The notes below the pieces were generated by a model. It ran no database searches. It was given only the letters and a program-made list of their open reading frames with translations, and was not told where the DNA came from. The translations under genes were made by a program, and so were the position numbers. Below, one piece after another: positions 12,747-25,149 of a DNA stretch of 64,000 bases (position 1 is its first letter; the number at the start of each line of letters is the position of its first letter). This stretch comes from an uncultured Thermoplasmata archaeon (GTDB lineage Archaea > Thermoplasmatota > Thermoplasmata > UBA10834), in NCBI GenBank assembly GCA_963705355.1, contig OY970070.1, positions 287,741 through 351,740 of the forward strand. Reading direction: 5' to 3'.

Positions 12747-15368
12747 ATGGCACAATACGATTGGCGAGAGAGCGAGCCAAAGTGGCAGGCCAAATGGAAG
12801 GGGTGGGAGATCTACCGTTTTGACCCAAAGTCCAGGAGAAGAGTCTACAGCATAGACAATCCCCCGAGGTACGCCTCCGGAGCTCTGCATTTGGGCCATG
12901 CCTACGGGTACACGGTCATAGATTTCGCCGCCAGGTACAAGCGACTTAGAGGATACAATGTCTTCTTCCCGCTCTGTTTCGATGTGAACGGGACGCCTGT
13001 CGAAGTGCGCGTGGAGAAGGTCAAGGGGATAAAAGCCTCAGATGTTCCCCGCCAGGATTTCATACAGATGTGCAGAGAGTTCGCCGAGAAGCACATCGGC
13101 GAGATGGTTCACCAGTTCGAGATTCTCGGCGAGAGCATGGACCCGAGCATCTACTACCAAACCGATGCGGAGTACTACAGGCGGCTGACACAGATCTCCT
13201 TCATTCGGATGTTCAAGAAGGGTCTGGTCTACAAGGGTCACTTCCCCATCAACTGGTGCACAAGGTGCGGGACTGCGCTCGCAGAGGCGGAGGTAGAATA
13301 CGAGCCCCGAAAGACGAAGCTGAACTACATCAAGTTCACAGAGACTGAGTCTGGCAAGGAAGTGCTCATCGCCACGACAAGGCCCGAGCTGCTGAGCACG
13401 TGTCTTCTGGTCGCGGTTCATCCGGAGGACGCGTCCAAGAAGGACCTGGTCGGGAAAGAACTGCTGGTGCCAGTCTACAACAGGAAGGTGAAGGTCGTTG
13501 CGGACCCGAAAGTGGAGCCATCCTTCGGCACCGGCACAGTGATGATCTGCTCGATCGGGGATAAGGACGATCTTGAGTGGATCATGAAATACAATCTGCC
13601 GCTGGAGAAGGGCATAGACGAATCCGGCGTCATGACCTCACTCGCCGGCAAGTACGCGGGCATGAATGTGGTTGATGCGCGAAAGACAATCATCGAGGAT
13701 ATGAAGCGTGCGGGGCTGCTCGTGAAGCAAGAGGATCTTGACCAGAACGTAGGTGAGTGCTGGAGATGCAACACCCCCATCGAGTTCATCAAGGTCCCAC
13801 AATGGTTCATCAGGAGCCTTCAGTTCAAGGCCCAGGTCCTCGAGATGATTGACCAGATCGATTGGAACCCGGAATTCATGAAGATCAGGATCCAGAACTG
13901 GGTGAATTCCCTCGCGTGGGACTGGGTCATATCAAGGCAGAGGTACTTCGCCACAGCGATACCCCTTTGGGAGTGCCGGGACTGCGGCAATGTCCTCCTT
14001 GCAGAGGAGCACGAATGCTATGTGGATCCGACCGCAAAACCCCCGAAGGTCGACAAGTGCGAGGTGTGCGGGGGGAAGTATGTCGGGTCGACCGAGGTGT
14101 TCGACACCTGGATGGATTCCAGCATCTCTCCCCTCTTCAACACGTACTGGGAGAGAGACGAGAGACTGTTCAAGAGGCTATATCCCATGTCCATGAGGCC
14201 CCAGGGTCTCGAGATAATCCGGACATGGGCCTACTACACAATTCTGCGCGAGATGTTGCTCATCGGGGAGAAGCCTTGGAATGAGACTATGATTCACGGT
14301 TTCATCATGGCCCCCGACGGAACACCAATGCATGCGTCCGCCGGGAATGTCATCGACCCGATGCCGCTGCTTGAAAAGCACGGCGGGGACGCGATGAGGT
14401 ACTATGCGGCCACGTGTGCCCTCGGCATCGATCACGCGTTCAAAGAGCAAGAGCTCGTCCGCGGCGGGAGGCTCGCGACGAAGACCTGGAACGTAATGCG
14501 GATGGTGGGATCTGCCTGCAAGACGAAGCCCAGGAAGCCCAAGAAGATGCACACTGTTGATGAGTGGATACTCAGTCGGTTCGGGAAGCTGATTCTGCAG
14601 GTAGAGAAGGCCAGCGACAAGTATCGGTTCGACCAGGCCATGGCCGCGACAGAAGATTTTATGTGGCATGAGTTCGCGGACCACTACATCGAATTGGTGA
14701 AGCACAGGGCCTACAGTGACAAGGACGCAGGCGCTAGATACGCTCTCTACACTGTTGGTCTGGGCTTGCTCAAGCTGATATCCGTTTTTCTGCCGCATGT
14801 TGCCGAGGACGCATATCAGCTGAACTTCAAGGAACACGAGAAATCCATCAGCATCCACGTCTCTGAATGGCCAGAGCCTCCAAAGGAGAGTGAAGACTCT
14901 GAGAGGAAGGGAGAATCGATCAAGCAGATCGTCGCATCGGTCCGTTCCTGGAAGTCGTCGAAAGGGCTCTCGCTGAACGCTGAGATCAAAAGGGTCGAAA
15001 TCGTTGGGCCCGAGGCGGCCGACGTGATTGCGGGCTCGGAGAGCGACATCAAGGAGACCCTCAAGGCTAAGGAACTTGAGGTCCGCGCGGATGTCGCGTT
15101 GAAAGAGACAGTGTCGCGATTGAGGCCTGTGCACTCCAGGCTTGGGCCCTCTTTCAGGAAGGACGCGAAGGAGATCGCAGAGAAACTCGCGTCGATGCGT
15201 GGTTCTGGTGTCTTGGCCCCAGACAAGGGGGTTCTGATCAAGATGAGCGACGGAAGAGAAATCGCATTGTCTCCCGAGTTCTTCGAGGTCGAGAGGAAGG
15301 TCACTTCAGACAAAGGTGAGCTCGAGCAATTCATGGTCAACGAGTTCTCGGTGCTGGTGTATCAGTAG
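12747..15368 (+). CDS. valS: Valine--tRNA ligase (archaeal type)
   Basis: Class I HIGH motif (HLGHAYGY) and ValRS-type blocks (DWDWVISRQRYFATAIPLWEC, RPQGLEIIRTWAYYTI, GNVIDP...GGDAMRYY). The KMSKS position reads PMHAS (see findings). Confidence 0.85.
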   Translation: MAQYDWRESEPKWQAKWKGWEIYRFDPKSRRRVYSIDNPPRYASGALHLGHAYGYTVIDFAARYKRLRGYNVFFPLCFDVNGTPVEVRVEKVKGIKASDVPRQDFIQMCREFAEKHIGEMVHQFEILGESMDPSIYYQTDAEYYRRLTQISFIRMFKKGLVYKGHFPINWCTRCGTALAEAEVEYEPRKTKLNYIKFTETESGKEVLIATTRPELLSTCLLVAVHPEDASKKDLVGKELLVPVYNRKVKVVADPKVEPSFGTGTVMICSIGDKDDLEWIMKYNLPLEKGIDESGVMTSLAGKYAGMNVVDARKTIIEDMKRAGLLVKQEDLDQNVGECWRCNTPIEFIKVPQWFIRSLQFKAQVLEMIDQIDWNPEFMKIRIQNWVNSLAWDWVISRQRYFATAIPLWECRDCGNVLLAEEHECYVDPTAKPPKVDKCEVCGGKYVGSTEVFDTWMDSSISPLFNTYWERDERLFKRLYPMSMRPQGLEIIRTWAYYTILREMLLIGEKPWNETMIHGFIMAPDGTPMHASAGNVIDPMPLLEKHGGDAMRYYAATCALGIDHAFKEQELVRGGRLATKTWNVMRMVGSACKTKPRKPKKMHTVDEWILSRFGKLILQVEKASDKYRFDQAMAATEDFMWHEFADHYIELVKHRAYSDKDAGARYALYTVGLGLLKLISVFLPHVAEDAYQLNFKEHEKSISIHVSEWPEPPKESEDSERKGESIKQIVASVRSWKSSKGLSLNAEIKRVEIVGPEAADVIAGSESDIKETLKAKELEVRADVALKETVSRLRPVHSRLGPSFRKDAKEIAEKLASMRGSGVLAPDKGVLIKMSDGREIALSPEFFEVERKVTSDKGELEQFMVNEFSVLVYQ

Positions 15369-17978: not shown

Positions 17979-19313
17979 TTATACCTTGTGCGAAGCATGC
18001 AGATTGGTTCTCCCTCGCTCGTTCCACCACGGAATTGCTTCTCCGACCAGATACAACGAACCTATCACGCAGAGCCCTCGGCCGCGAGTGTCTTTGGCAG
18101 AGTGATCGAATGCATCCTCGGAACTCTCAAATAGCTCTCGAGGTCCTGAGAACTCTTCGCCAACAATGCTGTCGAGTTTCTTTGCGGGCAGTGCCCTCTT
18201 GCACTTTGCCTGGGTCGAAACTATCTTCTCAGCTGCGGGTATCAGCGCCTTGACTATTCCTCGAGAGTCTTTGTCATCCATACAGCCAAGAACAAATGTG
18301 AGTGGAGTCACCTTAAGACTCTCCAGGACACCGACGGTCGTTGAGACTCCGTCCGGATTGTGGCTTCCATCGAACAGAATCAGTGGATTCCTTGAAACAA
18401 CGTCGAGTCGACCAGGCCACCGAGCTGCCATCAGCCCTCTCCTAATGTCTTCGTCGGTGATGAACACATCTCGTTTTGCCAGCTCCTCGACAATGGCGAT
18501 TGCGCCTGCCGCGTTTTCGGCCTGGTATCCACCCAGCAGATGAGTGTTCAGATTCCTGAGGTTCCTGTCCCCTGAATAGTCGAACTTGGTTCCATTAAGA
18601 GACTGTCGGATCGCGGTCACTTCGAAATCCTTTCCGATCCGCTTCAAAGGGGCGCCCTTCCTCTCGCAGGTGCTGGTGATTACAGCTAGAGCCTCTGGTT
18701 TCCGTTCGCACGTTACTACACTCATACCTTGCTTTACGATTCCCGCCTTCTCTCGAGCGATGTCCTGGATCGTGGTGCCCAAATAGTTCGTATGCTCCAG
18801 GCCGATCCTTGAAATGGCTGAGACCACGGGGCTGAGGACGTTGGTTGCGTCGAGCCTCCCGCCCATGCCGACTTCCGCAACGACCATGTCGACCCCCATC
18901 TCGGCGAAGTACTTGAACGCAAGGCCAGTGGTGAACTCGAAAAACGTGAGCTGTTTTTCCTTGTTCTCCTCCGCCATGGCTTCCATTACCTGGCGAAGGT
19001 TCGTCCCCAGCCTCACGACATCCTCCTCGGAGATCTCTCGTCCGTTTATCCTGATCCGTTCTCTGAAATCGACCAGATGCGGAGAAGTGTACAGCCCAAC
19101 ACGGAGTCCATGCTTTCTCAGGATTTCAGAGGCAAGCACGCAGATTGACCCCTTTCCATTGGTGCCCGCCACATGGATGGATCTGAGGTCGTGGTGCGGA
19201 TTGCCAATCCTTTCTAGGAACTCGGTGATGTTCTCAAGACCGAGCTTAATTCCAAACCGCTCAAGAGAGAACATCCACTCCTTGAACTCATTGTACCGCA
19301 TCGTTGGGGACAA
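17979..19313 (-). CDS. folC: Folylpolyglutamate synthase / dihydrofolate synthase (Mur-ligase family)
   Basis: P-loop HVAGTNGKGS, Mur-ligase middle domain, and a C-terminus typical of FolC. Confidence 0.75.
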   Translation of the reverse strand: MSPTMRYNEFKEWMFSLERFGIKLGLENITEFLERIGNPHHDLRSIHVAGTNGKGSICVLASEILRKHGLRVGLYTSPHLVDFRERIRINGREISEEDVVRLGTNLRQVMEAMAEENKEKQLTFFEFTTGLAFKYFAEMGVDMVVAEVGMGGRLDATNVLSPVVSAISRIGLEHTNYLGTTIQDIAREKAGIVKQGMSVVTCERKPEALAVITSTCERKGAPLKRIGKDFEVTAIRQSLNGTKFDYSGDRNLRNLNTHLLGGYQAENAAGAIAIVEELAKRDVFITDEDIRRGLMAARWPGRLDVVSRNPLILFDGSHNPDGVSTTVGVLESLKVTPLTFVLGCMDDKDSRGIVKALIPAAEKIVSTQAKCKRALPAKKLDSIVGEEFSGPRELFESSEDAFDHSAKDTRGRGLCVIGSLYLVGEAIPWWNERGRTNLHASHKV

Positions 19314-19355
19314 CTTCTCCCATCTTTTAAGGGCTTTGGAGGTCGTGTGCCGCCT

Positions 19356-20135
19356 CTATTCGCCCTCAGCGTTCATCCTCGCCGTCCAGTGGGAAAGGTT
19401 CAATCCCTGCTCCTTCGCCAGCCTTTCCATTGCTCTCAGCACTCCTGAGCTGTACTGGGCGGCCTTCTTGGGCCGATTGCGGGATGGAAGGCCCAGGATT
19501 TCGGCTACCTCTCTGAGGATGATCTTCCGACCGGCAGAACTGACTTTCTTTTCCAGCGGCGTGTCCACAGCTGCAGAAATGACCGTGGCGGTGGCGTATG
19601 GAAATCCAATGGTCTTGCCGAGTGCAGTGGCTTCTGACGCCAGCAGTCGGGCTTCACAGAGCATCTTCGTCAAGTCGGCCGCCATGGTCTCGGCAGGGTT
19701 TCCAACGCGAGAATACTTCGCGTAACCGCCGAACAGCTCATCTGCTCCGCTCCCAGCTAGAACGATTTTCTCTGCGGATCTCTGAAGAACGCAGAGGATC
19801 GGGATCGTGTAGGCGATTTTCACCGGATCGCTCGTATTGAGGATTCTTGATGCCCTTCGCGCAAGAGACTCCACATTCTCCGCCTTCAATTCTATCAAGC
19901 TCAGCTTCCTTCCTTCTTCATCGGCACACTGCCGCGCGTTGAGCGCGTCAAAGGATCCTTCTGTGGCACACGTGTAGCACATTACGCTCGTTTTCTCGCT
20001 GGCAAGTGCTGCAAGTATTGAGCTATCAAGGCCTCCAGAATAGGCGACAGCTGCCCTGCTCTCTTCAGCGATGAGGTCAGATACGGCGGCTCTCAACCTT
20101 GTGAGGAGAAGGTTCGAATTCATGATTGACACCAA
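19356..20135 (-). CDS. Asparagine-synthase-C-terminal-domain-like PP-loop ATP pyrophosphatase
   Basis: SGGLDSS PP-loop and the AsnB-type SGADELFGGY motif in a ~259 aa stand-alone protein. Confidence 0.55.
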   Translation of the reverse strand: MVSIMNSNLLLTRLRAAVSDLIAEESRAAVAYSGGLDSSILAALASEKTSVMCYTCATEGSFDALNARQCADEEGRKLSLIELKAENVESLARRASRILNTSDPVKIAYTIPILCVLQRSAEKIVLAGSGADELFGGYAKYSRVGNPAETMAADLTKMLCEARLLASEATALGKTIGFPYATATVISAAVDTPLEKKVSSAGRKIILREVAEILGLPSRNRPKKAAQYSSGVLRAMERLAKEQGLNLSHWTARMNAEGE

Positions 20136-20296
20136 GAGCCTCGCTCAACGACAAAAACCCATCGTCTTGGCGGGTCTGCGCATAGGCGACATTCTGGTCG
20201 TCTCAGGGCAGCCAGATGATGACCAAAGGCTTAAAAGGCATCGAGGTCATCTACCTGCAATCCCAGGTTTCGAACCCCCAAACGGAGGGCTCATTG

Positions 20297-20830
20297 ATGG
20301 CTGAAGACGACCTGATGAAAGTCAAAGTATGCTTTATCGGAGATGCAGGCGTTGGCAAGACGAGCCTGATCAAGAGATTTGTACTGGACGTGTTCGACGA
20401 CCGGTACATCGCAACGATTGGAACGAAGGTCACCAAGAAGATCGTCGACGTCGACGGCCAGGCGAAGGTCATGATGCTTGTCTGGGACATAATGGGCCAG
20501 AAAGGCTTCAGAGAGCTCCTGCGCGAGGCATATTTCTTCGGCGCCCACGGCGCCATTGCAGTCTGCGACCTCACGAACAAGGAGACACTCGAAGAGCTGA
20601 GATACTGGATCAAGGCCCTGACTGATGTTGCGGGCGATGTCCCTATCGTGTTCGCCGGCAACAAGGTCGATCTCGAGAACGACAGGGTCATCAAGGAGCA
20701 GGACCTGCAGGAGCTGGCTTCGAAGTACAAGGGGAAGTCATTCTTGACGAGCGCGAAGACAGGTCAGAACGTTGAGGCCGCGTTCAAGACCCTCGCTGAG
20801 GCGATGTCCGAAAGAATGAAGAGCCAATAA
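20297..20830 (+). CDS. Ras-superfamily small GTPase, Rab/Ras-like (~178 aa)
   Basis: G1 GDAGVGKT, switch-I T (YIATIGT), G3 WDIMGQ, G4 GNKVD, G5 TSAK, and Rab-like YFFGAHGAI. Start chosen at ATG 20297, 7 nt after a GGAGGG RBS; the track start 20216 is a likely over-extension. Confidence 0.8.
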   Translation: MAEDDLMKVKVCFIGDAGVGKTSLIKRFVLDVFDDRYIATIGTKVTKKIVDVDGQAKVMMLVWDIMGQKGFRELLREAYFFGAHGAIAVCDLTNKETLEELRYWIKALTDVAGDVPIVFAGNKVDLENDRVIKEQDLQELASKYKGKSFLTSAKTGQNVEAAFKTLAEAMSERMKSQ

Positions 20831-20891
20831 TGGGCTAGTTTTCATTCCCAGTATTGATAACGACTTGAGAACACTTATAAGCCCAGCACAG

Positions 20892-20901
20892 TCTATAAAA
20901 T
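20892..20901 (+). promoter_or_regulatory. TATA-like box (TCTATAAAAT) upstream of the giant surface-protein gene
   Basis: AT-rich decamer in the 150-bp intergenic region between the GTPase gene and the surface-protein gene. Confidence 0.3.
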
Positions 20902-20982
20902 CGCACGAGAGGCGAGGCTAAATTGGCTGTGCGTTTGGGCAAACGCCTTATAGTGGTAAGTCAAACACAGTCCTTCGGACAC

Positions 20983-23900
20983 ATGAGGATACTCGCTACC
21001 TTCTTCGCCCTTTTCCTTGTCGCATCGCCTTTTCTTCCCTTGGCCAACCATAGCGTTCGCGACGCGGAGGCTGCTTCCCTTTCTTCTTGGACTAGAGTGT
21101 TCTATCTTCATGAGGGCGTAGCGTACGTCCCTTGGGGAACCTATGACTGGTTGAACTCATCGGGCCCCGCGAACCCTTCTCGAACTGACTACGACGGTGA
21201 CGGCGTCGAGGGCATCACCCTCAGACATCCGGGACTATGGCAAACATGGCATGGCTGGATCTTGTATCCGAGAGTTGGTTCTGACGTTTCCGTGTCAGGC
21301 GATATGGGGGTGAATGTCTGGGCGAGAAGCATCGATAACTCGCCGGGAATTGTCATGCGGGCGCGATTCTTTGACATCACAGCAGGTCAATGGTCGGACC
21401 CACGTAATGGAATTGAATTGGGCAATGCGACGCTTCCGCTCGCGGGTCCGGACTACTCTGTGTACCAGCTCTATTCTTTCACGATTGCTAGCGTATCATA
21501 CGTTCTCCCATCTGGTCACTATCTTGCGCTGGTCATCGAGCGACGGGACAATGATAACAGTCGACTCGTGATCTACTTTGACAAAACAGACTATGCCTCT
21601 TACATCACTCTCAACACAACGACTTTCGTGAACGTGGATTCCGCCCGGACCGTGGATTCGTACGGTTCTCCGCGGGGAACCTTCTCAGATCAGGAGAGCG
21701 CCGTTGTTGAGGCGAACGTGTCAGATCCGTTTGGAGCATATGACATAGTGGCAGCCTATGTTCAGGTTTTGAACGAGAGCGGTGTTGTCAACGCGACTAC
21801 TTCGATGAATCTCGTCCAAACAGATCCTTCCCAGCCTGGCTACTGGAAAAGTTACAGCCTGGCACTGTCACTCTTGCCTGAGGGCAGCTACACAGTGAAT
21901 GTCACCGCTAGTGATCCTCAGGGCACGCCCACATGGATGAATCTGTCTCTCACGATTGTGTCGGTCGATCACTTCCTTGTGTCGGCCCCTTCAGCAATCG
22001 TTGCCGGCTCACTCTTCTCGATGACGGTCTCGGCTCTGGATTCCTCCAACTCCATCATAACGAATTGGGTTGGCCAGGTTCAGCTGGCTGCATACGAACC
22101 GGATCTGGTGACGCCGGGGGTGAGGCTGTTGGCTCGGACACTTCTGGTCTTCACGCCGGGTGACGGAGGTCAGGTGACTATATCGGATCAGAACTACACT
22201 TTCGGCGAGGACACGATTCGCATCAAGGCTTCGTCTGGAGTCCACGTTGGCTGGAGCGGGCTCATAGCTGTTTCCAGCGGGCCGGTCATCCGCATCCTCA
22301 TCTCTCCGCCGGGTCCTGAGACCGTCGCTTCAGGAACCTCAAGGGCCTTCACTGCTACGGGCCTTGATGTTCTTGGAAACATCAACACGACTTGGTCTCC
22401 GAATTGGACCGTGCCGTCCAGCATCGGCACGATTTCGGGAGCCGGCCTCTCAGTGACCTTCACAGCTTCGTTGGTTGGCTCGGGTAATCTGAGGTGCAAG
22501 AACGATTTGACAGACGCGAACAGGACCGCTCTTATTAATGTTGTTGTGGGAGAGTTGGCAAGGATTGTCATCTCTGCTCCGTCTGATCCTCTCCTGATTG
22601 GAGAGAACGAGACTCAAGCCCTTACTGCGACTGGCTACGATGTCAATGCAAATCTGGTGGATATCACTGGCGCTATTTGGCGTACCAACACTTCCGGGGC
22701 TGTCAATGGCAGTGGGCCGTCCGGAGTCTATCGGGCGGGATTCATCCCTGAGGTTGGTGTCATCAGCGTCAGAGTCGGCGGCATCGTTGGGGTGCTTAGT
22801 GTTGTCGTTGTTAGCGGTATCCATGGACCCTGGCTCAGCACGATACCGGAGCAGATTCAGAACGAGGACGGAGGGACATGGGAGCTTAGCCTTACTGGGT
22901 ATTGGCATGACGACGAGGGGACCGAGTCCCTCAGATGGTCGGTCGAGGACGTCAATATGTCGCTCTATATCGTCACACATGATCCGAATTCGAATGCCGT
23001 GCTGAGGCTGACCACCCAACCGAATCAGAACGGGGAGGACGCGCTCCGGCTTTGGGTTGTGGACAGTGGAGGCTATTGGACATATCAGTGGGTGACCGTC
23101 AAGATACTCCCGGTAAATGATGCGCCTCAATTCGTCAACAATCCTCCGACGCGACTCAGTGTGAGATTCGACGACCCCTACGTATTCGACTACACGTACT
23201 ATGTCTGGGACGTTGACAATGCGAAGTCGGAATTGGGGATGAGCGCATCCTTGCCCAGCTCCAGCGGCGGCAGCATCGAATTCGATGGACTCATTGCCAC
23301 CTTCCTGTTCCCTTCGGACCCAAGCCGTGGCTCGACCTACTTCGAGATTGTCACTCTTTCAGTGATAGATCCCGCCGACGCTTCTTCTCAATTGAAGTTA
23401 GCCGTATATGTCACTTGGGACTACCCTCCTCGCTTGAACACCAGCCTGCCCAACCAAACGCTGTATGAGGGGGACGTCCTTCACTATTGTTTTAACCTCG
23501 ACTCATATTTCTATGATGTTGAGGGCTCGTACCTATATTACTCCTACGGCTTCCAGCATCTCCAGGTCTACATAGCCTGGAACCACTCGGTCTACATGAA
23601 CGCGACGGAGGAGTGGTCTGGCACGACCGACGGCGCGTTCACTGCCACAGACCCTGAAGGTGCTCTGAAGACCGACATGATCACAGTCACCGTGATCGCA
23701 GTCAATGATGCGCCGATTGTGAGAAGTCCAGGATCTATTCTAGTGAAATACAACGTCACATACTACCTCTACCTGAGCCAGTATGTGTTCGACCCGGACA
23801 ACTCAATTGATTCCTTGACATTCACGTTCAACGACACGCACGTGAAGGAGACATCGACCTTCATGGGCAGCTACCGACTCGAGATACTGTTTCCGGGAAG

Positions 23901-25149
23901 CATCCTCCCTGATTCCGATATCTTCCTTGGCCCATACCTTGTCTATGTTCACATGGAGGTTACTGATCCTGGTGGTCTGATGACCCCCTGCAATTTCACG
24001 GTCTTTGTGACGGACGACGCTCCGCCGACTGTGATTGCCCCGAATCCGGACGCGACTTACTACGCATTCCCTGAGAACTCATATCTGAACAACTCGCTGA
24101 GGATGTACGATTTGTTCTGGGATCCCGACGATTCGATGCTCAATTTCACAATCGTGGGGAACAGATTCGTTCACCTCCAAATCTACTCAAACGGTGTCGT
24201 CAATCTGACTTCAGATGTGAATTGGTCGGGAACGGAGGTCCTCACAATCACGGCAAAGGATTCACATCTCGGCTGGGCATCGTTCCGCGCGTACGTGACG
24301 GTCACGCCAGTCAATCAGGCTCCTTGGATCTATCCAATCCCCGACATGATCGTCAAGACGGGGCATATTGATGCGCCATTCTACATCCTCGACTACATTT
24401 ACGATAGCGACGATGCTCCGGAGAACCTGACGATTACTGCATCTCCTGCTGAGAGCGTGGCTGTCGTCGGAGGGTTCCTCTACGTCACGCTCCCGCACGG
24501 AGTTGATGTCATAACGGTCACCATTCAGGCGAGCGACGGCAAATTGCAGTCCAATGTCAGAATCTTCAAGGTTGGTGTGGAGAAGACGATGGCTGAGAGA
24601 ATCGGCTGGCCCTATACGTTCCCGCTTGTGTTGCTGGCGGCAGGCGTCGCGGGCTACTTCCTGGCGAGCCGGATCCCGCGGCCGTACGCGCTTGAGAACA
24701 TCTTCCTCATTCACAACGATGGCAGGCTCATTGCACATGTCACCAAAGAGGAGAACACTAATCTGGACAAGGATGTGGTGAGCGCCATGTTCACGGCAGT
24801 CCAAGAGTTCGTCCGGGACTCCTTCCAGAAAGGTGAGGTGGGACTCAAGAAGCTTGAGATCGGTGACAAGAGAGTCATCATCGAGAAGGGGCAGTGGGCT
24901 TACGCCGCGTTGATATACTCTGGTTGGCCGGCGAAGGAGACCTTCGAGAACCTCCCCATGCTATTGAGGGACATCGAGGAACGCTACAAGGGCAGGCTGG
25001 AGAGGTGGAACGGCACCATGAAGACCGTCGTGGGGGTCGACAAGATGCTCCAAGAGTTCATGGCGGATACCTACAGGCCGGGAACGTGGCACGAAGAGGA
25101 GGAGATCGGTGAGGAGCGGTGGGTCGACATCCTCGAGAAGGAGGCCTAG
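20983..25149 (+). CDS. Giant (~1390 aa) secreted/membrane-anchored surface protein: signal peptide, N-terminal DxDxDG-containing domain, cadherin-like repeats, one C-terminal TM helix, cytoplasmic Roadblock/LC7-like domain
   Basis: Signal peptide MRILATFFALFLVASPFLPLA. Many N-x-S/T sequons. Repeated cadherin-type linkers (VNDAPQF, AVNDAPIV, PVNQAPWI) with DxD/DxNxD motifs. TM helix WPYTFPLVLLAAGVAGYFLA, then IFLIHNDGRLIAH...DVVSAMFTAVQEF...GLKKLEIGDKRVIIEKGQWAYAALIYSG, which matches the Roadblock/LC7 pattern. The track start 20923 is a TTG; ATG 20983 gives a cleaner signal peptide. Confidence 0.7.
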   Translation: MRILATFFALFLVASPFLPLANHSVRDAEAASLSSWTRVFYLHEGVAYVPWGTYDWLNSSGPANPSRTDYDGDGVEGITLRHPGLWQTWHGWILYPRVGSDVSVSGDMGVNVWARSIDNSPGIVMRARFFDITAGQWSDPRNGIELGNATLPLAGPDYSVYQLYSFTIASVSYVLPSGHYLALVIERRDNDNSRLVIYFDKTDYASYITLNTTTFVNVDSARTVDSYGSPRGTFSDQESAVVEANVSDPFGAYDIVAAYVQVLNESGVVNATTSMNLVQTDPSQPGYWKSYSLALSLLPEGSYTVNVTASDPQGTPTWMNLSLTIVSVDHFLVSAPSAIVAGSLFSMTVSALDSSNSIITNWVGQVQLAAYEPDLVTPGVRLLARTLLVFTPGDGGQVTISDQNYTFGEDTIRIKASSGVHVGWSGLIAVSSGPVIRILISPPGPETVASGTSRAFTATGLDVLGNINTTWSPNWTVPSSIGTISGAGLSVTFTASLVGSGNLRCKNDLTDANRTALINVVVGELARIVISAPSDPLLIGENETQALTATGYDVNANLVDITGAIWRTNTSGAVNGSGPSGVYRAGFIPEVGVISVRVGGIVGVLSVVVVSGIHGPWLSTIPEQIQNEDGGTWELSLTGYWHDDEGTESLRWSVEDVNMSLYIVTHDPNSNAVLRLTTQPNQNGEDALRLWVVDSGGYWTYQWVTVKILPVNDAPQFVNNPPTRLSVRFDDPYVFDYTYYVWDVDNAKSELGMSASLPSSSGGSIEFDGLIATFLFPSDPSRGSTYFEIVTLSVIDPADASSQLKLAVYVTWDYPPRLNTSLPNQTLYEGDVLHYCFNLDSYFYDVEGSYLYYSYGFQHLQVYIAWNHSVYMNATEEWSGTTDGAFTATDPEGALKTDMITVTVIAVNDAPIVRSPGSILVKYNVTYYLYLSQYVFDPDNSIDSLTFTFNDTHVKETSTFMGSYRLEILFPGSILPDSDIFLGPYLVYVHMEVTDPGGLMTPCNFTVFVTDDAPPTVIAPNPDATYYAFPENSYLNNSLRMYDLFWDPDDSMLNFTIVGNRFVHLQIYSNGVVNLTSDVNWSGTEVLTITAKDSHLGWASFRAYVTVTPVNQAPWIYPIPDMIVKTGHIDAPFYILDYIYDSDDAPENLTITASPAESVAVVGGFLYVTLPHGVDVITVTIQASDGKLQSNVRIFKVGVEKTMAERIGWPYTFPLVLLAAGVAGYFLASRIPRPYALENIFLIHNDGRLIAHVTKEENTNLDKDVVSAMFTAVQEFVRDSFQKGEVGLKKLEIGDKRVIIEKGQWAYAALIYSGWPAKETFENLPMLLRDIEERYKGRLERWNGTMKTVVGVDKMLQEFMADTYRPGTWHEEEEIGEERWVDILEKEA

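Follow-up and report, generated by a model that had tools for sequence, protein, structure and literature searches.

The longin fold forms guanine nucleotide exchange factor (GEF) and GTPase-activating protein (GAP) platforms for Rab, Rag and MglA GTPases, and the longin–GTPase partnership is usually regarded as a hallmark of Asgard archaea and eukaryotes. Ras-like GTPases of non-Asgard archaea have been on record since 2007–2016. Surkont and Pereira-Leal (2016) reported a single Rab-like gene in a Thermoplasmatales archaeon and likewise in Aciduliprofundum (PMC4915359); the archaeal Rab-like sequences sit in an unresolved basal polytomy (PMC4915359), and none of the archaeal sequences is the specific sister of the Rabs (bioRxiv 2024.02.28.582541). 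Concerning the partners of such GTPases, it is at their switch regions that Rab, Rag, MglA and SR-beta GTPases are bound by the longin/roadblock fold (PMC10933270, PMC4316618). The roadblock domains of Ragulator tether lipid-free GTPases to the membrane (PMC10933270), in the actinobacterial conservon a roadblock protein and a GTPase are coupled genetically to a membrane sensor (PMC4316618), and a signalling system has been proposed for the group 1 Rup genes and the conserved membrane protein to which they are linked (PMC4316618). Here we describe a locus of an uncultured Thermoplasmata archaeon, located in a stretch of 64,000 nucleotides of contig OY970070.1 (the whole stretch is called the window below), in which the gene of a Ras-superfamily small GTPase is followed by the gene of a giant surface protein whose cytoplasmic tail is predicted to have a longin fold. 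The coordinates of the features are presented in Table 1.

The GTPase alone is ordinary, being of a known kind and widespread in its lineage; it is already named ‘small GTP-binding protein’ in public data. What is new is that a Rab/Ras-like GTPase lacking a lipid anchor is genetically linked, strictly and at the level of the phylum, to a predicted longin fold anchored in the membrane. This arrangement suggests an undescribed membrane signalling pair, and no description of a module made of a GTPase and an orphan longin-tailed surface protein was found in the literature full text, the coverage of which was incomplete. If the pairing is real, a longin–GTPase partnership exists, independently or ancestrally, in a euryarchaeal phylum, in a form resembling a receptor–G-protein pair.

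The link between the two genes is seen in their order. The counts that follow combine 40 loci of species-representative genomes with loci from metagenomes, and are partly redundant. The giant gene begins 60–150 bp past the GTPase gene in 85 of 85 loci, the tail is encoded at +3,816 to +3,885 bp in all of the orthologous GTPase loci with at least 4.7 kb of downstream sequence (79/79), and the GTPase is present at every tail locus with enough upstream sequence (76/76). The other neighbours are looser: the AsnS-like gene is found in 30 of 31 loci, with insertions of more than 500 bp in seven, and the DUF885 gene in 49 of 67. The adjacency of the GTPase and the giant gene is strict, and tighter than that of any other neighbour. 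One metagenome scan yielded mostly orthologues, which confirmed the window-type pair and added little new breadth. No extra Ras-like genes were found in the flanks of the 44 genome loci and no second Ras-like gene was found across the 64-kb window (a second GTPase copy in the window was rejected on this ground), so a chance adjacency is unlikely. The original prediction, which was made from the letters of the window, had placed the GTPase in a housekeeping neighbourhood; this holds for the tRNA synthetases, DEAD helicase and methyltransferases around it, but the relevant neighbour, the giant surface protein downstream, had been overlooked.

The giant protein consists of an N-terminal signal or transmembrane (TM) segment, an ectodomain of Ig/cadherin-like repeats, one C-terminal TM helix and a cytoplasmic tail of 157 amino acids. 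Across loci, identity is 75–100% for the GTPase, 47–99% for the tail and 32–98% for the ectodomain (mostly 39–56% outside near-identical strains); judged by these alignments, constraint on the giant protein falls on the tail, its only well-conserved part. Compared with the homologue in CP070736.1, the giant protein is 45% identical overall and ~79% identical over the 52 readable tail residues. In that otherwise complete genome, a run of N (loci L005/L034, ~14540–14640) masks part of the tail-coding region, and the public call of the giant protein ends early (1,260 aa) for this reason.

In a confident model the tail has a longin fold. The AlphaFold2 (AF2) model, based on a 112-sequence alignment reaching down to ~25% identity, has a pLDDT of 82.7 and a pTM of 0.78, and its elements are E5–13, E18–23, H32–49, E56–62, E65–71, E75–82, H87–103 and H121–129 (β-β-α-β-β-β-α-α). 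This predicted structure has the longin order β1-β2-α1-β3-β4-β5-α2-α3, with a five-stranded antiparallel sheet and no N-terminal helix. In a Foldseek search against the PDB the best 50 matches are all longin or roadblock domains, nearly all with probability 1.00, and no other fold is found. The matches comprise longin domains (Sec22b with a TM-score of 0.72, Ykt6 with 0.67 and VAMP7 with 0.62, with an rmsd of ~3 Å), coat subunits (zeta-COP and the AP sigma subunits), TRAPP and GEF components (Bet5/Trs23/Tca17, Mon1–Ccz1) and roadblock proteins (MglB, MglC, Ragulator subunits, dynein LC7 and Asgard Roadblock2). The TM-scores are 0.57–0.72 for longin domains and mostly 0.38–0.55 for roadblock domains. 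Since longin domains differ from roadblock domains by a missing N-terminal helix and extra C-terminal helices (PMC10933270), and the model has both traits, the tail is assigned to the longin variant of the fold. The window tail has no match in Pfam at E ≤ 10, and 25 of its homologues give scattered, weak and irrelevant matches only; the searches of the tail against NCBIfam and of the tail profile against PDB sequences gave nothing relevant. The modelled likeness to the Robl_LC7 and Longin families is at the level of the fold only.

The tail domain belongs to a large family with the signature FLIhxDGxLI.H...D.D..SgMlTAVQ.FV.DSF...L..le.G...I.E.G...Y.A.I..G....(E)..Y...l..W.G. An exhaustive search with the tail profile through 1.84 billion cluster representatives, the clusters being defined at 50% identity, gave 4,512 matches at E ≤ 1e-3 and 2,742 at E ≤ 1e-10; those with an organism name are all from Thermoplasmata, Thermoplasmatota, Thermoplasmatales or Methanomassiliicoccales. 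The commonest architecture is a signal peptide, a large ectodomain, a TM helix and the C-terminal domain, and in most members the TM helix stands directly ahead of the domain. Other members are ~195-aa proteins with TM and domain, proteins with a Zn-ribbon, TM and domain, and proteins with four TM helices and two domain copies. There are also soluble proteins of 1,300–2,400 aa with two or three domain copies (examples are within P0139 and P0145–P0166), in which DUF5915 was found in those scanned; P0139 and P0154 carry DUF5915 together with CARDB. Fusions with DUF835, a response-regulator receiver and an AAA_16 ATPase are found as well (P0198, P0299, P0328; P0388; P0315). From these architectures the orphan longin-fold domain looks like a versatile signalling module. 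JGI labels some fragments of the domain (P0122, P0127, P0129, P0132 and P0199) as ‘OOP family OmpA-OmpF porin’, which is unsupported by sequence or model and looks like an annotation artefact.

Concerning the GTPase, the protein database contains 3,783 homologues, most of them 177–185 aa long. The best 120 of the 3,783 are 81–99% identical to the window protein, and the organism-named ones among these are all from Thermoplasmata, Thermoplasmatota or ‘Euryarchaeota RBG’. The scan of species-representative genomes gave 44 loci, all in Thermoplasmata/Thermoplasmatota, of which 40 are orthologues (75–100% identity) and four are paralogues (43–61%), the latter sometimes sharing a metagenome-assembled genome (MAG) with an orthologue. 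Orthologues, with identities of 72–100% overall, are present in at least 40 GTDB species of Thermoplasmata, alongside several paralogue groups, and dozens of further metagenome loci carry homologues. A contig from the MAG ‘Thermoplasmata archaeon MFD13565_ilm_asm_bin2’ has the same sequence as the window over the GTPase gene. The original prediction had called such GTPases sporadic outside Asgard archaea and had named a wide occurrence in the lineage as a result that would count against it; the occurrence is indeed lineage-wide. In 71 unique orthologue sequences, residues 8–117, which include both switches and helix 3, are almost invariant, and the catalytic Gln68 is invariant. The gene and its G motifs are intact and under extreme purifying selection. 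As both switches are nearly invariant while the FolC-like neighbours are only 51–72% identical in most related loci, the GTPase would have conserved protein partners. The C-terminus (...AEAMSERMKSQ) has no Cys, the sole Cys residues being at positions 12 and 89, and the N-terminus (MAEDDLMK) is acidic and not amphipathic; by sequence, the window GTPase carries no prenylation, myristoylation or amphipathic-helix signal.

Gene context was also sampled outside the orthologous group, in about seven families, which is a small sample. A second pair was found in which a 271-aa Ras-family GTPase comes directly after a ~195-aa protein with two TM helices and a longin-like domain (L053/54, L139 and L140); in the L050 version, which lies on the same contig as the window-pair orthologue L031, the open reading frame (ORF) of the GTPase has 183 aa and is apparently truncated. 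Within the second pair, the GTPases are 65–80% and the domain proteins 52–79% identical, whereas between the second pair and the window pair the GTPases are 39–44% and the tail domains 26–30% identical. On the evidence of these identities, the two are old paralogous pairs. A different arrangement is present in L055/56: a Ras/Arf-type GTPase is divergent beside a 916-aa CARDB/CLIPPER surface protein that carries the domain at its C-terminus, after which comes a second small domain protein. The distance between GTPase and tail-domain gene is 3.6 kb in L135, where unrelated genes intervene, and this supports the association only weakly. The association of GTPases with the longin-like domain is recurrent, not universal, and its recurrence is unlikely to be due to chance because, as said, the flanks of the 44 genome loci hold no extra Ras-like genes. 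In one GTPase paralogue group, a conserved helical extension of ~95 aa, containing VDEIIQDFCAQYGDLEKAMLIVQHQF, is found at the C-terminus (L053, 4664–5476; L139, 3666–4481; L140, 3658–4473; L047, 6806–7789) and has no match in Pfam. In L050 a separate 101-aa ORF comes after the short GTPase, apparently through a frameshift.

We propose that the GTPase is a soluble molecular switch and would form a two-gene module with the downstream giant gene. The longin-fold tail would dock the GTPase at the membrane, a role proposed because the GTPase has none of the membrane-targeting signals named above. Both docking and regulation are proposed because switches that are frozen in sequence meet, in a fixed neighbour, a membrane-anchored domain of a predicted fold known to bind GTPase switches. 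The tail would set the nucleotide state, either as a GEF in the manner of TRAPP, Mon1–Ccz1 and DENN, or as a GAP in the manner of the roadblock protein MglB. The giant surface protein would be the sensing or adhesive part, so that surface events (binding, adhesion or envelope assembly) could be coupled, in either direction, to a GTP/GDP switch in the cytoplasm. In our judgement, this role of the tail as membrane dock of the GTPase and regulator of its nucleotide state is somewhat probable; physical binding, the direction of signalling, the choice between GEF and GAP and the downstream events are all what we infer. The wider reading, a transmembrane signalling mode found throughout Thermoplasmatota in which the orphan longin-fold domain, present in thousands of proteins, recruits and regulates dedicated Rab/Ras-like GTPases, is put forward more tentatively.

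Several observations weigh against a coupled pair, and most of them would fit a free-standing cytoplasmic GTPase that serves polarity, division or translation-linked control, next to a protein whose tail is used for oligomerisation or sorting. The whole block of FolC-like, AsnS-like, GTPase, giant and DUF885 genes is syntenic in the clade, and inheritance of the gene order may account for some of the adjacency. The spacer between the GTPase and the giant gene holds two TATA-like boxes, TTATAA (20875–20880) and TATAAAA (20894–20900); the giant gene may have its own promoter there, and the two genes may be separate transcripts. The assignment of the longin fold rests on one model, a first AF2 model of the tail (16 close homologues) having had a pLDDT of 57.7 and given nothing significant in Foldseek. 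The very top structural matches are coat subunits, and the longin fold also has GTPase-independent roles, such as those in SNAREs and coat subunits. Also, no GTPase was found near the domain gene in L051, L052, L057/58, L141 and L142, and the paralogues L044 and L047–L049 have no domain gene within 7 kb. Inherited order does not readily explain, however, why the GTPase and the giant gene hold together in 79 of 79 loci more tightly than the other members of the block, why an anciently diverged second pair is adjacent in at least four lineages with a third arrangement in L055/56, and why the 44 genome loci have no stray Ras-like genes in their flanks. We consider a free-standing GTPase, the main rival, less probable and keep to the docked and regulated GTPase as the preferred reading.

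Table 1. Features of the GTPase gene, the spacer and the giant surface protein gene, in positions of the window
Feature	Coordinates	Strand	Basis
Ras-superfamily small GTPase ORF, 177 aa	20297..20830	+	Pfam, PDB, orthologue alignment
TTAAAA, possible archaeal TATA-like box ~60 nt 5' of the GTPase start	20231..20236	+	sequence, inference
GGAGGG Shine-Dalgarno-like site, 7 nt before ATG 20297	20284..20289	+	sequence
G1/P-loop GDAGVGKT, aa 15-22	20339..20362	+	invariant in orthologues
G2/switch I Thr40 (YIATIGTKV), inside FDDRYIATIGTKV	20414..20416	+	sequence and orthologue alignment
G3/switch II DIMGQ, aa 64-68 (WDIMGQ, aa 63-68), catalytic Gln68	20486..20500	+	sequence and orthologue alignment
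G4 NKVD, aa 122-125	20660..20671	+	read in translation
G5 SAK, aa 152-154	20750..20758	+	read in translation
GTPase-giant intergenic spacer	20831..20982	+	sequence
Giant type-I surface protein, 1,388 aa from ATG 20983 (1,408 aa from TTG 20923)	20983..25149	+	Pfam, NCBIfam, homologues
C-terminal transmembrane helix IGWPYTFPLVLLAAGVAGYFLASRI	24601..24675	+	hydrophobic segment
Predicted longin-fold cytoplasmic domain, tail residues 5-133	24688..25074	+	AF2 model, Foldseek
Acidic C-terminal peptide ...WHEEEEIGEERWVDILEKEA of the giant protein	25087..25146	+	alignment; pLDDT < 50 at residues 142-149

The GTPase matches the Pfam family Ras (PF00071) over the full-length domain with an E-value of 1.6e-39 and 135.5 bits (cut-off 21.6), whereas the Roc, Arf and Gtr1_RagA models score far below (Arf 45.6 bits). 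In NCBIfam only the generic TIGR00231 small_GTP is found (E 9.6e-21, 74.2 bits, cut-off 42.5). The motifs G1–G5 follow in order within a domain of ~170 aa, as is typical of the Ras superfamily, and the YFFGAHGAI block comprises residues 78–86. The ORF, all of the motifs, the ribosome-binding site and the missing C-terminal prenylation motif were found as the original prediction had described them, and its proposed check of the nucleotide-binding residues and catalytic Gln gave intact G motifs. Some public gene calls choose an alternative in-frame ATG at 20216 (204 aa); the start at 20297 is favoured because of the position of the ribosome-binding site and the length of most homologues, and the TTAAAA box falls within the alternative N-terminal extension. 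Long ORFs in other frames or strands overlap the GTPase and its neighbours at 20251–20730 (-), 20329–20625 (+) and 18814–19725 (+); these are probably non-coding shadow ORFs of coding sequence with 55% G+C, the value of the window, and not genes. All of the Thermoplasmata paralogues found keep variants of FDDRYIATIGTKV and WDI[ML]GQ. The paralogues L049 (1768–2322) and L135 (5374–5982, -) have WDL[IL]GE in switch II, with Glu replacing the catalytic Gln, and may be hydrolysis-deficient or GAP-dependent. In L046 (665–1350, MAG UBA9653) the match to the orthologous GTPase is in two pieces (665–910 and 1066–1350), for which a frameshift, an insertion or a fault in the assembly could be responsible.

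Within the superfamily, the best 60 PDB matches of the GTPase are all Rab, Ypt or Sec4 proteins (E 3e-32 to 3e-26), with Rab26, Ypt6, Rab1 and Rab8 at the top. By blastp against reference sequences, mostly entered by hand rather than taken from a database (the PDB matches supplied Rab26 and Ypt6), Rabs score highest (86–113 bits, 34–40% identity), followed by Ran (83), Ras/Rap/Ral (62–69), Rheb, Rho and Arf/Sar (Arf1 and Sar1 22–28 bits); identity is 38–40% to Rab26, Ypt6, Rab7 and Rab11, above Ran, Ras and Rho. The original prediction of a functional-looking Ras-superfamily GTPase nearest to eukaryotic Rabs is borne out to this extent. A genuine Rab, whether orthologous or directly ancestral to the eukaryotic Rabs or transferred from a eukaryote to the archaeon, would explain these similarities and the position of the protein beside Rabs in a neighbour-joining tree (distance-based, 200 bootstraps, with a reference set without Rup1 and Asgard RasL). 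In that tree six Thermoplasmata paralogues are monophyletic at 92% with the window protein and its orthologues, and this clade falls inside the Rab/Ran/Ras/Rho group, apart from Arf/Sar at 90%; it joins Rab and Ran at 33% and Rab6/Ypt6 at 10%, values of a distance tree with mostly hand-entered references.

The RabF1–F5 motifs are IGVDF, KLQIW, RFRSIT, YYRGA and LVYDIT (criteria of Pereira-Leal and Seabra, as given in PMC4915359); their counterparts in the window GTPase are IGTKV, MMLVW, GFRELR, YFFGA and AVCDLT. Only 11 of the 27 RabF positions are identical, no better than in Ran and Rap1A (10/27) and far below the 18–25 of eight real Rabs, the references here too being mostly hand-entered. 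The RabF motifs are not conserved, the C-terminal prenylation Cys and the hypervariable tail of Rabs are absent, and the distribution is lineage-wide and vertical-looking. This outcome agrees with the literature, which leaves the placement of such archaeal sequences unresolved (PMC4915359; bioRxiv 2024.02.28.582541). A genuine Rab is very improbable on these grounds. The GTPase is Rab-like by overall similarity, yet no demonstrable Rab; of the Rab/Ras-family label of the original prediction, Ras-superfamily membership stands and Rab identity does not, and the phylogeny that it had asked for separates the protein from MglA and Arf and joins it to Rab and Ran with a bootstrap of 33% only. By these comparisons the GTPase belongs to the Rab/Ran/Ras/Rho-type (‘Ras-like’) part of the Ras superfamily, in a branch specific to Thermoplasmata.

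The tree and the blastp scores also bear on other assignments. Arf/Sar/ArfR identity was ruled out by the Pfam scores (Arf 45.6 vs Ras 135.5 bits), the 90% split and the non-amphipathic N-terminus. An MglA-type polarity GTPase, or a component of a defence or conflict system, would be a natural thought, as prokaryotic small GTPases with roadblock partners are classically MglA/MglB, and PADLOC gave matches, though weak only (mad8 with E 1.7e-4 and PtuA with E 3.8e-3). MglA proteins have a modified G3 (Asp-less in group 1) and, in bacterial members, an insertion between G1 and G2 (PMC4316618); the window protein has DxxGQ at G3 and no such insertion. Its similarity to MglA by blastp is not significant (E 1.1 over 12 aa), and MglA is the most distant sequence in the tree, so that MglA membership is essentially refuted. 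The giant protein has no PADLOC match, and the gene is at a stable core-genome location in every species. An MglA-type or defence role thus has hardly any likelihood, and the GTPase is, from its sequence, clearly neither MglA- nor Arf-like.

Regarding the giant protein outside its tail, public gene calls start at the ATG. The ectodomain matches are weak (Pfam Big_9 and Cadherin_4; NCBIfam tandem-95 repeat with 66 bits, below the curated cut-off of 90). The ectodomain contains 30 N-x-S/T sequons, and the protein is probably glycosylated. Its length is nearly fixed, as judged from the position of the tail past the GTPase in the 79 loci, despite an ectodomain identity of mostly 39–56%. The fixed length, the 30 sequons and the single copy at a conserved position suggest a structural, S-layer-like protein rather than a variable adhesin. 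At the C-terminus, a nearly invariant EEEWVDIL.KE is confined to orthologues of the giant protein, the rest of the tail-domain family lacking it. With its acidic residues ahead of W-x-x-[IL], it resembles short linear motifs of the LIR/AIM type; this peptide, where the confidence of the model is low, may be a short docking motif.

The neighbour upstream of the GTPase is annotated as ‘Asn_synthase’ (259 aa, 19356–20135, -). It matches positions 4–141 of the 354 of the profile, which is the N-terminal ATP-pyrophosphatase part only, with a weak match to DUF7411, and probably represents a PP-loop ATPase, not an asparagine synthetase. In nearly all loci, this AsnS-like gene keeps its synteny with a FolC-like Mur-ligase gene. 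A functional link of the GTPase to these two genes was rejected, as they lie on the opposite strand and insertions are tolerated before the GTPase.

If the GTPase and the tail interact, the pair would be a compact, testable prokaryotic model of longin platforms that control small GTPases at membranes, and the partnership would not be limited to the Asgard–eukaryote line. An interaction would also give a function to the orphan family (4,512 clusters) that dominates the cytoplasmic tails of Thermoplasmatota surface proteins, and would point to a receptor-to-GTPase route of transmembrane signalling in archaea, a poorly understood area.

Among the known systems, the window GTPase resembles the archaeal Rab-like/RasL proteins (PMC4915359), which are likewise single-domain, nearest to Rabs, without the prenylation Cys and with a short C-terminus; the Asgard RasL (Klinger et al. 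2016, as presented in bioRxiv 2024.02.28.582541) are grouped with the same likeness. The Lokiarchaeal Rab-like set, in contrast, is defined by RabF motifs, of which the window GTPase has only 11 of 27 positions. The window family differs from the archaeal Rab-like/RasL proteins in being lineage-wide, in having several paralogue groups and in being tied to a membrane longin-fold partner gene, which is undescribed in PMC4915359 and in bioRxiv 2024.02.28.582541. The Rup family (Wuichet and Sogaard-Andersen 2014, PMC4316618) resembles the window GTPase as non-MglA prokaryotic members of the Ras superfamily with eukaryote-like G1–G5. However, group 1 Rup proteins lack the catalytic Gln (PMC4316618), whereas the window GTPase has the invariant Gln68, and the partners in their conserved neighbourhood of four genes (a coiled-coil protein, an OmpA-domain membrane protein, and a GGDEF/EAL protein or kinase) are absent at the window, where the neighbours are the AsnS-like gene and the giant gene; membership in group 1 was ruled out on these two grounds. 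Group 2 Rup proteins are confined to Crenarchaeota/Thermoproteaceae (PMC4316618; bioRxiv 2024.02.28.582541), and the window GTPase is found in Thermoplasmata.

Concerning the proposed partner, TRAPP Bet5/Trs23, Mon1–Ccz1, DENN and SR-alpha SRX/SR-beta likewise pair a longin-fold domain with a Rab/Ras-like GTPase. The tail model matches the longin subunits of TRAPP and Mon1–Ccz1 in structure, with no detectable sequence similarity. The longin-platform GEFs are soluble and multisubunit, whereas the predicted longin fold at the window is the tail of a single-pass giant protein or, in the second pair, part of a small protein with two TM helices. In MglA–MglB, Rag–Ragulator and the conservon CvnA–D a small GTPase is likewise controlled or anchored by domains of the roadblock superfamily. 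The window system differs from these in that its GTPase is neither MglA- nor Rag-like, it has no histidine kinase, and the putative sensor and the longin-like module are combined in one polypeptide.

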